In this document: positions 8,938 through 17,860 of the stretch, piece after piece
Layout: each line of letters opens with the position of its first letter
Position numbering within the stretch: position 1 is the stretch's first letter
DNA from: an uncultured archaeon
Lineage (GTDB): Archaea; Asgardarchaeota; Thorarchaeia; Thorarchaeales; Thorarchaeaceae
NCBI GenBank assembly: GCA_964631415.1
Contig: CAZVZC010000004.1
Location: forward strand, 17,658-81,657
DNA: 64,000 nt
Direction of reading: 5' to 3'
Program-made: the position numbers and the translations under genes
Notes under the pieces: generated by a model
Told to the model about the DNA's origin: nothing
Seen by the model: only the letters and a program-made list of their open reading frames with translations
Databases searched by the model: none

Positions 8938-10026
8938 CTAAGAGGACTGCTTCGGGGCAGAATCATCTGATTGCCTGCCGAACAGCCTTCTTGACCACTT
9001 CTTCCAACCTGAGTGGAGTCCGGACCCCCAAGTCCCTTGCCACCACCAGCCCTTTCCAGCCTTCATGTACATAGAGACCTTCATCCCGGATATCACAAGC
9101 TGCCACGAGTTGGTGACGGCAACGATGAAGACTATGAACGTCCAGACACCATTGAACAGGAGTGGCAGGAAGGAAATCTCACCGTACAGGCTTGTCATGT
9201 CAAAGAGCGACCACACACCATTGGTGTTATTCCAAACATTGACAATAGGCCAGCCAGTGGTGACCAGCACCATGCACACGACGATCCATACGGCTGAGAG
9301 AATGGCTTGGAGCAGTAGATTCGCATTGTTCTCTCCTGCCTTGAAAAACAGATAGCCCTTCGCCGCGCTCACTGCCATCAGAAACGCCATGACACCTAGG
9401 ACCGGTAGAAATGCGGGGATGAAGCAGAGCTGTATCTGTGGCAGCAAAAGGATTACTGCGAAGAATAGTCCGAACACAATGTCGGCGACTGCATCAAGCC
9501 TGGACTTAGGCGTGAAGACACCGCTTCCAGCGCCTAGGACTCCCTCAAGGACTGTCTTCTCAGTTGGCGCCTTGTACCTGTCAAGGAATGACAACACTCC
9601 AATGACGACGATGGCCAGTCCTACCCAAAACATGACCATGACAGGGATGTTGAATGGCCAGTTCTCGATAGTCGGGAAGCCCCACATTGATAGGGAGATT
9701 CCCACGAAGTAAGCGCCGATGCCGAATGCAATCGCAAGAGCCACAAGTGCCATCACCATCCGACCGGCGGGCAGCATGTACTCAGCGGGTATGGGGCCGA
9801 CCTTCTTGCCAGTCCCAGCATAGGCATTGGCGGCTTCCTTCGGATCGCCGAATCGTTCAATGGCCAGCATCACTGAGCCGCGGGTGAGCTTCCCTTGGCC
9901 TAGGGACTGGGCCTCCTCAATCAAGTGCGTTCTAATCTCGGTCAGTGTGTCCTGACTATCAATGGGAAGGTATATCCTGACCCGTTCGAGATACTTCTCA
10001 ATCATTTCCAATGGTTCTTCACTCAT
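8938..10026 (-). CDS. membrane protein with N-terminal HAAS-like domain (PadR partner)
   Basis: IEKYLERVRIYLP...EIRTHLIE...AIERFGDPKEAA followed by multiple TM helices; 4-nt overlap with the padR-like gene. Confidence 0.8.
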   Translation of the reverse strand: MSEEPLEMIEKYLERVRIYLPIDSQDTLTEIRTHLIEEAQSLGQGKLTRGSVMLAIERFGDPKEAANAYAGTGKKVGPIPAEYMLPAGRMVMALVALAIAFGIGAYFVGISLSMWGFPTIENWPFNIPVMVMFWVGLAIVVIGVLSFLDRYKAPTEKTVLEGVLGAGSGVFTPKSRLDAVADIVFGLFFAVILLLPQIQLCFIPAFLPVLGVMAFLMAVSAAKGYLFFKAGENNANLLLQAILSAVWIVVCMVLVTTGWPIVNVWNNTNGVWSLFDMTSLYGEISFLPLLFNGVWTFIVFIVAVTNSWQLVISGMKVSMYMKAGKGWWWQGTWGSGLHSGWKKWSRRLFGRQSDDSAPKQSS

Positions 10027-10397
10027 TGTGCGTCAACTCTCCCGAGTAGTTCTTTCATTTCATTCGTTAGCACAGACCATGTTTCGGTCATCATCTTGAG
10101 GGCTCTCTTGCCCTCGTCCTCAAGGCGGTAGTACTTCTTCGGTTTGGTTGGGTCCGCATAGTCCCACTCGCTGCTCAGCAGTTTTCGCTCCTTCTCGAGA
10201 CGACGAAGCAGTGGATACACTGTTCCCTGTTCAAGCTGAAGGAATGTCACCTTGTCGCTCAGACGTTTGACAATCTCGTACCCGTAGGCAGGACCTTCCT
10301 CCAGCACTGCTAGGATTGCGAGGGCCGCAGCACCTTTCTTCACCTCAGTGGACCACCGCTCGAATTCCTCTCTTGCAGGACCAGATCCACCGCTCAC
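10023..10397 (-). CDS. PadR-family transcriptional regulator
   Basis: ILAVLEEGPAYGYEI, GTVYPLLRRLE, KKYYRL. Confidence 0.92.
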   Translation of the reverse strand: MSGGSGPAREEFERWSTEVKKGAAALAILAVLEEGPAYGYEIVKRLSDKVTFLQLEQGTVYPLLRRLEKERKLLSSEWDYADPTKPKKYYRLEDEGKRALKMMTETWSVLTNEMKELLGRVDAQ

Positions 10398-10452
10398 GGC
10401 TCAGTACTCGCCTCCCTGTGGGCTGTTTTGCTCATTATTGTGTTACACCTTT

Positions 10453-10471
10453 TACTATGCGTTACATAGTA
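10453..10471. promoter_or_regulatory. palindromic operator TACTATG-N5-CATAGTA, probably for PadR
   Basis: Perfect 7-5-7 inverted repeat just downstream of the minus-strand TATA (CTTTATATAT, 10485-10494). Confidence 0.65.
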
Positions 10472-10706
10472 GTGTACTACATGCATATATAAAGCTTGCT
10501 TAGTACGCAGCCAGATTCACGCACTGTTTCTGAGCAGCTGAAGCGCAGCCGACCATTGTAGTCCCCATCACATCCAAATGTATCAGGACCCGCTTCATGT
10601 CAATGAAGGCAGGTGATCTCCGGCACATCATCGCAGCACCTGGTTTCGGAGTACTTCGTTTCTGCTGTTGTTTGCAACGAAACCCTGCATGGAGTAGACT
10701 GGTTGA

Positions 10707-10732
10707 TGTACACAAGTGTACGTTAATGTACA
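10707..10732. promoter_or_regulatory. three TRP-box-like elements TGTACA-N4-TGTACG-N4-TGTACA
   Basis: 10-bp phased hexamers matching the TrpY TRP-box consensus TGTACA, upstream of TTTATAA (10746-10752) and trpB2. Confidence 0.65.
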
Positions 10733-10800
10733 GTTATGAGCAATATTTATAAGATGACCACCACGACCGCCTGACCCTAAGCCTGAGGTGAAGAGTCGCG

Positions 10801-10863
10801 ATGAGCGTGCGTTCCTACCAATGGGGCAGGGGTCTGAAGCGACCCTTAAAGCTAGTTTTGTAG
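10801..10863 (+). CDS. putative Trp-containing leader peptide (MSVRSYQWGRGLKRPLKLVL)
   Basis: SD GAGGTGA (10785-10791) 9 nt before ATG; TGG at 10822-10824; lies in the long trpB2 leader. Confidence 0.5.
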   Translation: MSVRSYQWGRGLKRPLKLVL

Positions 10864-11009
10864 ATACCGCTCTCGCGCCATATTCTTTCACGGCGTCGTT
10901 CTCTCACGAAACAGTCGTGCGAAGACTCGATTCAGGTCATGTCATAGCACGTAGTGCAGACGTGAAACCCCACGCCGTCCTCGGGAAACATGAATGTGAG
11001 GAATCATAG

Positions 11010-12329
11010 ATGACAAGACAACAGATCAGAATCACACTAGGTCCTGATGATACACCAAAGAGCTACGTGAACATAGTTCCCTACTTGCGGAGCCCACTTC
11101 CTCCCCCAATCGACGCGACGACGGGCGAACCGGTGAATCCCGAAGCGCTGACGAGAATATTCGCGAAAGAGTGCGTGCGACAAGAGGTTTCCCAACAAAG
11201 GACTATACCTATCGCTGACGAGGTTAGGGAGGCAATGATCCGTTTCGGAAGGCCAACCCCACTTCAGAGAGCGTACGGACTTGAAGAGATGCTAAAGACC
11301 CCGGCCAGAATCTACTACAAGAGAGAGGATGTTTCGCCGACTGGCAGTCACAAGACGAACACAGCGCTGGCGCAGTGTTACTATGCTATGAAAGAAGGTG
11401 TGGAACGATACACGACCGAAACAGGTGCTGGTCAGTGGGGCTGCGCTCTCGCCCTCGCATGTTCACACTTCGGTCTCGAAGCAATGATATACATGGTAAG
11501 GGTCAGTTACGAACAGAAGGCATATCGTGGAACTCTCATGAGACTCTACGGAGCGAAAGTTGTTCCTAGCCCTTCGCAAAACACCGAGTTTGGGAGAAGA
11601 CTCAATCGAGAACAGCCAGGACACCCCGGATCTTTGGGAATCGCAATCAGTGAAGCGCTTGAAGATGCGCTTGGCAGCCAGAACACGAAATACAGTCTTG
11701 GATCTGTCCTGAACCATGTCTTACTTCATCAGACAGTCATAGGTCAGGAAGCGAAGCAGCAACTCAATCTAATCGACACGAAGCCAGACTACGTGGTTGG
11801 CTGCGTTGGTGGGGGCAGCAACTTCGCGGGCCTGTCATATCCCTTCATCGCCGACCCCAGATTCAAGGACACCGAGTTCATTGCTGCCGAATCAGACGCC
11901 TGCCCCAAGCTCACTCATGGCGAGTACCGCTACGACTTTGGGGACACAGCAGGGCTCACACCAAAACTGAAGATGTACACTCTCGGCGCGAACTTCATTC
12001 CGCCGAAGATACATGCCGGCGGGCTACGATATCACGGCTCGGCTCCAACACTAAGCGCACTGATACAGGAGGGCAGGGTCAGACCATTGGCCTATAACCA
12101 AATCGACGCCTTGAGTGCGGGGGCCCTCTTCGCAAGGACAGAAGGCATCGTCCCGGCCCCTGAGTCGTCTCACGCAATAAAGGCAGTCATCGACCTCGCT
12201 CTCGAGGCAAAGCAAAGAAACGAAGAGAGAACGATTCTCTTCAATCTGTCAGGCCACGGGCATTTCGATATGACAGCCTATGGCTCCTTGATGGATGGCA
12301 CGCTAAGCGGAGAGAGCATGGCAACATAG
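11010..12329 (+). CDS. trpB2: tryptophan synthase beta chain type 2
   Basis: [16 protein letters not shown] (PLP lysine), [37 protein letters not shown]. Confidence 0.96.
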
Positions 12330-12433
12330 GATTCGATCATGGCACATGCTGCTGTCAAATGGCAGACGATGCGTGGAACACTGCAACTACCTGCAGCTGG
12401 ACTTCCGCCACAGACCAGTAGGAAACGGGTCAT

Positions 12434-13177
12434 CTAAAACTCGTGCTTACGGAATCTCCAGACTGCGAGTTCGCCCAGCACGACCAAGACGACGATGGTT
12501 ATGATCAGCGGATAGACTGAGAAGTCTGTGCCGTTTGCTATGCCCATCGCCACTGTGAGCAGACCCCATGGGCCATATGGTCCGATAGTGGGGTTCATTC
12601 CAAGGTTGACCCCAAAGAAGATGAAGAATATCGGCAACCACACAACTGATCCGGCCTTCTCGTAGAATGTTCCCATACATATAGTCAGGAAGAGCAAGAA
12701 CACCTGCCAAAGAATGACAGGGACAAGACTTGCACAGAACGCCAATATGCTCGGAGCAGTACCAAACAGAACAGCTAGAAGGAACACTACTGAACCTGGT
12801 ATCAGGACCATCGAGATGGCAATGTTCAGAGAGTTCGGCAAGAGCTTGGCCAAGACAAATGCTGTTCTGGACACGGGCTTTGACAGGACCCACGCAGCAG
12901 AACCCGAATCCTTCTCTTCAAGTATCGTTCCTGTTGCGACGACTAGCACTGCAATGGACGGGAATATGAATGCCATGATGTAGAAAATCATCAAGCCTCC
13001 TTCCGCGTTTTGGAGACCTATAGACGAGAACAGGCCGAGCGCTCCAGTCCACATGAGTGCCTGCTGCCACCATGCTGATGTCCCGAACCAAGCCTTGAGC
13101 TCCTTACGCACTAGGTTCGAGAGTCCCATTCTCCAGCCAGTTTCAATGACAGGCTCGAATGCTTCACTGTGCGACAT
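12434..13177 (-). CDS. ABC-2 type permease
   Basis: About 6 TM helices; EKDSGSAAWVLSKPVSR motif; overlaps the ATPase gene. Confidence 0.88.
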   Translation of the reverse strand: MSHSEAFEPVIETGWRMGLSNLVRKELKAWFGTSAWWQQALMWTGALGLFSSIGLQNAEGGLMIFYIMAFIFPSIAVLVVATGTILEEKDSGSAAWVLSKPVSRTAFVLAKLLPNSLNIAISMVLIPGSVVFLLAVLFGTAPSILAFCASLVPVILWQVFLLFLTICMGTFYEKAGSVVWLPIFFIFFGVNLGMNPTIGPYGPWGLLTVAMGIANGTDFSVYPLIITIVVLVVLGELAVWRFRKHEF

Positions 13178-17095: not shown

Positions 17096-17860
17096 CTAGC
17101 TAAGGTTCGCCGATATGGCACCTGTCGTAGCCTGCGCCACGATTGTGAGCGTGGTTTCGGCGGTATGGTAGTCGTCGGTTTCGTAGTGACTCGTTGTTAT
17201 CTTGTTCCATCCGACCTGAGTCACGGTAACTGGGCCGGCCGTGGTTGAGGCCTCGAAGCTCCCACCCACTCCTACTGGGAGGTCTAGGTTCACAGTGATG
17301 GCTCCGGCAGAGGCTTCAAGGTCAAAGATAGAGTCGCCTAGAACCTGCACGTCGTCACCCATGATGACAGAGATGGCGCCGGCTGTCGCGGTCAGAAACA
17401 TGTTACCAATGTGCGCTCCATGATCTAGTGTGATAGATACCGCGCCCGCGGACGTGATCACGTCAATCGTGTAGTTGGCACCTGTGCCCAGGGTGAGATT
17501 CACCCCTGCAGCTGTATAGTTCAAACGAATCACGTTTGAAGCCAAGATGACGACAGGCGCCCCGTGTGCTTCGAGTGTAGAGTTCTGAACCTCGACAGTC
17601 ATCCTGTACAAGAGGGTCGTGTTCTCCTCGAACTTGATGACAACTGCACCAGCGCCCAAGTTCATATCCAGAGTCACTGTACCTGTTGTGTTGCCGACCT
17701 CCTGTTCAAATGGAAAGACTGTCTTAGCAGTGTTCCAGCCCGGGAACCACCACCAACCAGTGGATCCAAAGTAGGTCAAAGCGCCGACTGCGAGGGCACC
17801 TCCGGTTATGACAGCGATTATGCATGCAACCATTCCCTTGTTTCTTCGATATTCACTCAT
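17096..17860 (-). CDS. membrane-anchored beta-repeat (DUF4097/adhesin-like) protein
   Basis: N-terminal TM, then repeated [TA]xAGA[VI][ST]x units (TSAGAVSI, ATAGAISV, ASAGAITV, ATTGAISA). Confidence 0.7.
   Translation of the reverse strand: MSEYRRNKGMVACIIAVITGGALAVGALTYFGSTGWWWFPGWNTAKTVFPFEQEVGNTTGTVTLDMNLGAGAVVIKFEENTTLLYRMTVEVQNSTLEAHGAPVVILASNVIRLNYTAAGVNLTLGTGANYTIDVITSAGAVSITLDHGAHIGNMFLTATAGAISVIMGDDVQVLGDSIFDLEASAGAITVNLDLPVGVGGSFEASTTAGPVTVTQVGWNKITTSHYETDDYHTAETTLTIVAQATTGAISANLS

Follow-up and report, generated by a model that had tools for sequence, protein, structure and literature searches.

Introduction

Attenuation by a ribosome that reads a leader peptide is a textbook bacterial mechanism, and in archaea TrpY is said by Karr et al. 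in 2008 to regulate trpB2. TrpY binds TRP boxes, and in 2019 little was known of archaeal tryptophan (Trp) regulation beyond it (PMC6737238). According to a general remark in a paper describing a tool, gene regulation by upstream open reading frames (uORFs) extends to archaea (PMC10219788). In the searchable literature we found no worked archaeal case of leader-peptide attenuation or of uORF stalling, no worked Asgard Trp leader, and no publication that combines Asgard archaea, tryptophan and a leader peptide. Here we describe the leader of trpB2 in a 64,000-nucleotide (nt) stretch of DNA (the window; positions 17,658 to 81,657 of contig CAZVZC010000004.1, GenBank assembly GCA_964631415.1) from an uncultured archaeon of the Thorarchaeaceae (Asgardarchaeota; Thorarchaeia). 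The source genome, G000, is metagenome-assembled, 2.16 Mb in size and 85% complete. The leader holds a short uORF with a UGG codon and looks like the bacterial amino-acid sensors that are read by the ribosome. Positions are those of the window unless a contig or locus is named.

Comparison with described systems

The bacterial trpL leader of Escherichia coli and Salmonella (Rfam RF00513) resembles the Thorarchaeial one in having a short ORF, led by a Shine-Dalgarno sequence (SD), before a Trp-forming gene, with the Trp codon or codons near its 3' half. In both, stable helices surround the ORF in such a way that a ribosome paused on it would cover their 5' strand, and the leader is paired with a Trp-responsive repressor at the promoter (TrpR in E. 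coli, a putative TrpY-type protein here). There is, however, no sequence or model similarity between the two, and the Thorarchaeial leader usually has one Trp codon where trpL has two in tandem. It has a single conserved three-way junction in place of the competing 1:2, 2:3 and 3:4 hairpins, no hairpin-plus-U-run terminator was found in it, and a long-range helix joins its uORF SD to the region beside the trpB2 SD. The archaeal host also differs in its RNA polymerase and termination signals (PMC13675443).

In leaders of the ermC and cat type, as possibly here, the position of the ribosome could set access to a downstream SD, and an anti-SD-like segment can pair either upstream or with the main SD. 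They differ in that, in our modelling, a ribosome stalled at the Thorarchaeial sensor codon leaves access to the trpB2 SD as it was, an effect being seen only when the uORF initiation region is occupied, and in that the signal would be the supply of charged tRNA and not a drug. The TrpY/TRP-box system of Methanothermobacter thermautotrophicus (trpEGCFBAD, trpB2) resembles the Thorarchaeial one in the TGTACA boxes of its trpB2 promoter and in having a gene of TrpY type, but has no reported leader ORF or RNA, whereas the Thorarchaeia would add a leader of about 235 nt after the operator.

A conserved leader ORF with an in-frame UGG

A preliminary description of this locus, made from the letters alone, had proposed a Trp attenuator consisting of an SD-led uORF with a TGG codon behind a TATA box, together with a switchable RNA structure upstream of trpB2. 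The uORF, its TGG and the TATA box are present in the sequence exactly where they had been placed (Table 1). The proposal was made to depend on conservation of the uORF and TGG in orthologous leaders, and this was found: an in-frame TGG occurs in 58 of 59 unique leaders from 15 genera. The sole exception, before the second trpB2 paralogue of genome G016 (L161, G016:C6:21945-22842), has its first Trp codon replaced (HCHW) and a UGG two codons later. Judged by sequence, a short candidate ORF carrying a codon for the regulating amino acid, with SD, AUG and in-frame UGG, is found in 54 unique leaders, two or three Trp codons being present in 12 of them.

Table 1. Features of the trpB2 promoter and leader in window coordinates
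Feature	Position	Strand	Basis or remark
Three TGTACA-type boxes (TGTACA 10707, TGTACG 10717, TGTACA 10727)	10707..10732	+	putative TrpY-type operator, 10-bp period
TATA box, TTTATAAG	10746..10753	+	TTATAA(G) kept at all family loci
P1, 5' strand, CCUGAGG	10782..10788	+	overlaps the uORF SD (GAGGUGA, 10785-10791); pairs with 10979-10985
Leader-ORF SD, GAGGTGA	10785..10791	+	9 nt before the ATG
P2, 5' strand (bases before the uORF start, AUG1, GAGCGUG motif)	10790..10807	+	pairs with 10868-10888
Leader ORF, 20 codons, MSVRSYQWGRGLKRPLKLVL, then stop TAG (10861-10863)	10801..10863	+	sequence; frame kept in 54 unique leaders
Proposed sensor codon, TGG/UGG	10822..10824	+	in frame with AUG 10801
P3 hairpin (AGGGGUC 10828-10834 / GACCCUU 10841-10847)	10828..10847	+	starts 4 nt after UGG (4-6 across leaders)
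P2, 3' strand (GUAG 10860-63, CGCUCUCGCG 10868-77, AUUCUUU 10882-88)	10860..10888	+	followed by pyrimidine-rich tract
Middle arm, closed by P4 (ACGGCGU 10890-96 / ACGCCGU 10972-78)	10890..10978	+	minimum-energy fold
P1, 3' strand, CCUCGGG, anti-SD-like	10979..10985	+	minimum-energy fold; can also pair with the trpB2 SD
trpB2 SD, UGAGGA	10997..11002	+	sequence
trpB2, TrpB-like pyridoxal phosphate enzyme, 439 aa	11010..12329	+	NCBIfam NF009057, TIGR01415

The leader reading frame appears to be under selection, because shifts of the start keep AUG in frame with UGG through insertions and deletions. The distance between the two is always 21, 24, 27, 30, 33 or 36 nt, and they are in frame in every one of the ten configurations of start offset and gap that were seen. 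Where the distance from the GAGCGUG motif to UGG is altered by a number that is not a multiple of three, the start codon moves in compensation. ATGs in frame outnumber those out of frame by 53 to 15. The UGG, which is unpaired in G000, is invariant while the helices around it covary, and in many lineages it pairs with a CCA of the P2 3' strand. In twelve further family-level loci, where TrpB2 is 66-71% identical, the uORF, TGG and hairpin recur before trpB2 with a peptide consensus of M-x-(S/R)-(V/A)-x-x-x-Q-W-x-x-G-P-x-x-P-V-stop. The predicted tail of the peptide is not conserved as protein: it reads GLKRPLKLVL, GRERPT, GLFWPV or VLLSGRTVQLFHY depending on the lineage, or is cut after GP, and the hairpin beneath is retained in all. 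A longer frame, of 73 codons from a GTG at 10788 to a TAG at 11007-11009 (+ strand), abuts the trpB2 ATG in the same frame and is probably due to chance; the relation is lost in other genera, and distances from UGG to the trpB2 start ignore frame.

Distribution and association with trpB2

A covariance model of the leader core was searched against 87 Thorarchaeia genomes, and the element was found in 59 of them (15 of 17 genera), as a single copy except in G016 and G086, with two strong copies each. In G016 each of the two trpB2 paralogues has its own leader. Every copy inspected lies 165-210 nt 5' of trpB2, and in the 26 genomes of the class that were checked for the two, leader and trpB2 are either both present or both absent. 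In G018 (L029), where trpB2 is broken, the leader is degenerate: its start has been lost, and a stop codon interrupts it early. No strong match to the model was found outside the family among 151 genomes of the phylum, and there is no further copy in G000; weak matches, in other Asgard families and within the family, fall inside coding regions away from trpB2 and were discarded as noise. Within the same genus the spacer is conserved in three islands only, i.e. the boxes with the TATA box, an 85-nt uORF block and the trpB2 SD. On these alignments the putative leader is far from a chance occurrence.

The gene itself exceeds the equivalog cut-offs of both NF009057 (663.7 bits against 366) and TIGR01415 (634.2 against 518.85). 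TrpB2 is the only Trp-forming step detected in G000, since trpA (PF00290) and trpE (PF00425) were not found in this 85% complete genome. As trpA was found in only 7 of the 87 Thorarchaeia genomes, most Thorarchaeia seem to keep only trpB2 of the Trp pathway. Pyrococcus horikoshii likewise keeps a lone trpB2 (PMC1854888).

Trp-rich frames also precede trpB2 in two other Asgard families, which raises our confidence that a codon is sensed. In family f3 (L019 and L021) frames ending in FWAWRWLTWP or FWAWRWLLWP before the stop lie 67-75 nt before trpB2, with no obvious canonical start codon near them, and in family f4 (L022) a frame ending in DGWPWRGPWQ lies 118 nt before it. These share with the Thorarchaeial leader the gene, the position, a short frame that ends soon after its Trp codons and a GC hairpin overlapping those codons. 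They are likened to it by position and Trp content and not by homology: the Thorarchaeial leader has one to three Trp codons, and its model has no strong match outside the family. It is a low-Trp variant with a well-defined fold of its own.

A scan of G000 for other amino-acid-rich leaders was noisy, and its sole candidate with four Trp codons was a 17-codon frame (MNWSYWFWGLTWLSRYA, then stop) at G000:C3:64247-64306 on the - strand (L187:4748-4807). It lies 82 nt before a row of ferredoxin, aldehyde:ferredoxin oxidoreductase, luciferase-like and major facilitator superfamily genes; it is not conserved in the sister genome G002 and is probably a chance frame.

Structure of the leader RNA

Minimum-energy folds of 23 representatives share one three-way-junction architecture, in which helix P1 closes the junction, P2 and the P3 hairpin involve the uORF, and P4 closes a middle arm. 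RNAalifold over all genera recovers only P3, as the 3' strands of P2 and P1 do not align, and P1 and P2 were therefore assessed by comparing cognate with non-cognate duplexes and by alignments within genera. P1, in which the uORF 5' untranslated region (UTR) and SD pair with a segment 20-45 nt before the trpB2 start, has strands that differ in sequence between genera yet remain complementary: cognate duplexes have a mean energy of -23.3 kcal/mol, against -16.5 for non-cognate ones, and none of 10,000 permutations was as good. Within one genus, 4 of its 11 pairs have changed on both sides, with a covariation score above those of all 500 shuffles and all slid controls. P1 was missing from the pairings first proposed for this leader, in which the uORF SD region (10782-10788), the strongly covarying partner of 10979-10985, had been overlooked.

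The duplex test, extended to eight leader segments, gave z = -7.9 for P1 and z = -4.6 for P2. Internal complementarity of the middle arm also co-evolves (z = -3.1), its sequence not being conserved between genera, and the post-stop segment scored z = -2.4 with the segment before the second SD (SD2). In P2, AUG1 and the first codons pair with bases 15-45 nt after the uORF stop, and a compensatory change from C-G to U-A is seen within genus g3. Both uORF stems of the preliminary description have thus held: the pairing of the uORF start CGCGATGAGCG (10797-10807) with CGCTCTCGCG (10868-10877) and the P3 hairpin (AGGGGTC/GACCCTT) are each part of the minimum-energy fold and each show compensatory changes across relatives. 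A single pair of P3 is UA in 14 cases, UG in 14 and CG in 12, and variant stems include GGCUCC/GGAGCC, GCGUCC/GGACGC and the 8-bp GGUCCUUC/GAAGGACC.

The long leader hairpin, of the uORF 5' strand with the post-stop region, is formed by 52 of 54 leaders. In G000 (10788-10890) it has an energy of -36.8 kcal/mol (z = -2.70), equalled by 1 of 200 dinucleotide shuffles, and a pyrimidine-rich tract follows it. Searched against Rfam at E up to 10, the region 9500-12000 yields only matches at chance level, with no Trp_leader and no T-box. A reading of GCGAUGA...CUGA as a C/D box or K-turn was rejected by eye, the bulge geometry and spacing being unsuitable.

Promoter and putative TrpY-type operator

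The TGTACA-type boxes sit just 5' of the TATA box and, like it, are kept at all family loci; TGTACA is what we take to be the consensus of the TRP boxes. Transcription of trpB2 probably starts near 10775-10780, which would give a leader of about 235 nt. An SD of GGAG type precedes trpB2 in 44 of 54 leaders. A gene for a TrpY-like protein with HTH and ACT domains lies at G000:C10:16998-17492 (- strand; L183), with no TGTACA boxes in the 260 nt upstream of it. Its product matches, over the full length at 29% identity (E = 3.7e-18), an HTH+ACT regulator (L044:881-1387) that is divergent from trpB2 in a Nitrososphaerales-like locus. By sequence, trpB2 therefore has both marks of a TrpY/TRP-box regulon: its promoter carries phased TGTACA boxes, and a homologue of TrpY is encoded in the genome.

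In the whole of G000 the paired boxes are seen at just three loci, that of trpB2 included. The others are at G000:C44:1810-1830 (L185) and at about G000:C8 30407 (L186); one of these lies about 160 nt 5' of a class I/II aminotransferase gene (PF00155) and the other before a gene for a small winged-helix (MarR-like) protein. On the strength of their boxes, the two loci may also belong to a TrpY-type regulon. Nitrososphaeria-type loci (L043, L044, L046 and L056) have TGTACA-type boxes before trpB2 and no long leader, so the operator appears to be widespread and the leader lineage-specific. Three of these four also have a divergent HTH+ACT regulator. On the other side of the Thorarchaeial operator, 612 nt from trpB2, lies a divergent PadR regulator gene (10023-10397) that overlaps a gene for a HAAS-domain membrane protein (8938-10026), both on the - strand; the pair (8938-10397) has an AT-rich promoter region of its own near 10440-10500.

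Proposed mechanism and points against it

We consider it probable that the leader is a ribosome-read Trp-codon sensor, acting in cis on trpB2 according to Trp supply and lying beneath a TrpY-type TGTACA operator. A ribosome would load on the still-open uORF while the leader is being transcribed. If charged tRNA-Trp were scarce it would pause with UGG in the A site, and P3, then at the mRNA entrance, should lengthen the pause. The paused ribosome would cover the 5' strands of P2 and P3, blocking the long leader hairpin, and would also prevent re-initiation, because the AUG is only 21-36 nt 5' of UGG. The uORF SD would be left free to form P1, which would take the anti-SD-like segment off the trpB2 SD and so allow trpB2 to be made. 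Induction upon Trp shortage is a sensible direction, because TrpB2 is the only Trp-forming step detected. With plentiful Trp, the ribosome would reach the uORF stop. Repeated initiation on the uORF might then hold P1 open, the freed segment masking the trpB2 SD; or the leader hairpin and the following pyrimidine-rich tract might stop or destabilise the transcript. We infer that the output step is one of these, SD masking via P1 or a premature 3' end after the leader hairpin. In archaea, termination relies on U-rich tracts, and a hairpin does no more than enhance it (PMC13675443).

Several results weigh against this sensor. Only one Trp codon is present in 42 of 54 leaders, the largest genus has a weak uORF SD, and in two leaders (L138 and L146) a stop codon in the P3 loop ends the frame early although the RNA motifs downstream are all retained. 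Much of the leader's conservation is at the level of RNA, since CCAAUGG is conserved as nucleotides beyond what the coding of Gln-Trp needs and GAGCGUG falls in different frames in different genera (S-V in G000, R-A-C in the largest genus). The folding energy of the whole leader is unremarkable (z = -1.4 against mononucleotide shuffles), and among the eight segments of the duplex test no co-evolving alternative or antiterminator pairing was found, the test supporting one fold only. With a ribosome footprint at the uORF stop, as at UGG, modelled exposure of the trpB2 SD is 0.57, against 0.58 in the free leader, and the hairpin proposed to mask that SD is no better than shuffled sequence. No match to a bacterial-type terminator pattern (hairpin plus T-run) was found in 10400-12600 of the window; T-runs have no positional preference in the leaders, and the gene ends of G000, examined for comparison, are equally without a T-run signal.

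It is in the switching that the preliminary description fares less well. The attenuator it proposed stands as regards its conserved uORF and TGG and its two covarying stems, but is not supported as a switch: there is one co-evolving fold, and modelled stalling at the Trp codon, which had been expected to change access to the trpB2 SD, has no such effect across 54 leaders when the footprint at UGG is masked. In equilibrium modelling, stalling of the kind known from ermC does not expose the downstream SD. The pairings of 10883-10896 with 10788-10795 and with 10972-10978, put forward as alternatives, use adjacent bases (10882-10888 and 10890-10896) and can coexist. Mutually exclusive antiterminator and terminator hairpins were not found, and no alternative pairing was detected for the post-stop strand. 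TCCTCG (10978-10983) and TGAGGA (10997-11002), suggested to mask the SD, are indeed complementary, but form a weak hairpin (-6.2 kcal/mol, z = +0.95). The only modelled event that alters exposure of the trpB2 SD is the opening of P1: masking its 5' strand, i.e. the uORF initiation region, lowers exposure from 0.58 to 0.47 (p = 2e-5).

Alternative explanations

A part of the same evidence would suit a riboswitch or T-box-like RNA, in which the junction binds Trp, indole or uncharged tRNA-Trp directly, stabilising P1 and freeing the trpB2 SD, with the frame secondary. There is one conserved fold, with its closing helix beside the trpB2 SD and no conserved alternative; the motifs GAGCGUG, CCAAUGG and CCGUUUAG are conserved regardless of frame; the two early-stop leaders keep the motifs that follow; and P1 opening alone changes modelled SD exposure. 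Against it stand an AUG that shifts relative to the RNA motifs yet stays in frame with UGG, an SD-like purine run retained within an otherwise freely covarying P1, and the Trp-rich frames of other Asgard families, for which a ligand pocket would not account. The sequence of the middle arm is not conserved, no conserved UGGN bulge or other motif stands beside the trpB2 SD in the alignments, and no Rfam family, T-box (RF00230) included, matches at E up to 10. We regard direct binding as unlikely. The two ideas could be combined in a composite sensor of a kind undescribed in any domain, with a junction RNA binding directly to Trp, to uncharged tRNA-Trp or to indole, the substrate of TrpB2, and a translated Trp-codon ORF in the same helices, both states acting via P1 on the trpB2 ribosome-binding site; this we think very unlikely.

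Two further explanations give the UGG another role or none. A structured 5' UTR that senses nothing, serving mRNA stability or the constitutive tuning of translation, would make the frame and its TGG by-products; two of the three frames are largely stop-free across the region and the energy of the whole leader is not exceptional, but the start shifts that preserve the frame, the strict linkage of the leader to a Trp gene bearing Trp-operator boxes as well, and the Trp-rich frames that other Asgard families have in this position make it highly improbable. Least probable of all is a TnaC-like arrest peptide, by which the nascent peptide and free Trp would stall the ribosome near the stop and remodel the leader. 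Many of the peptides do share Q-W-x-x-G-P-x-x-P-V-stop and end in Pro-Val-stop, but Trp is the only invariant residue, and the hairpin persists beneath tails that vary or are truncated, so that the GP..GP pattern is explained by the stem sequence. By general analogy with the tna operon of E. coli, moreover, a stall that Trp brings about should turn on a catabolic and not a Trp-forming gene.

Implications

If the ribosome-read sensor is confirmed, the prokaryotes known to be most closely related to eukaryotes would be using the coupling of transcription and translation to sense an amino acid, and archaea would gain a defined, compact RNA, about 210 nt long, whose helices can be tested and in which a well-placed hairpin backs one sensor codon. 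Most Thorarchaeia would then appear to rely on a single regulated TrpB2 step, probably from indole to Trp, in place of a full pathway, and this reliance would bear on their nutrition and on attempts at their cultivation.

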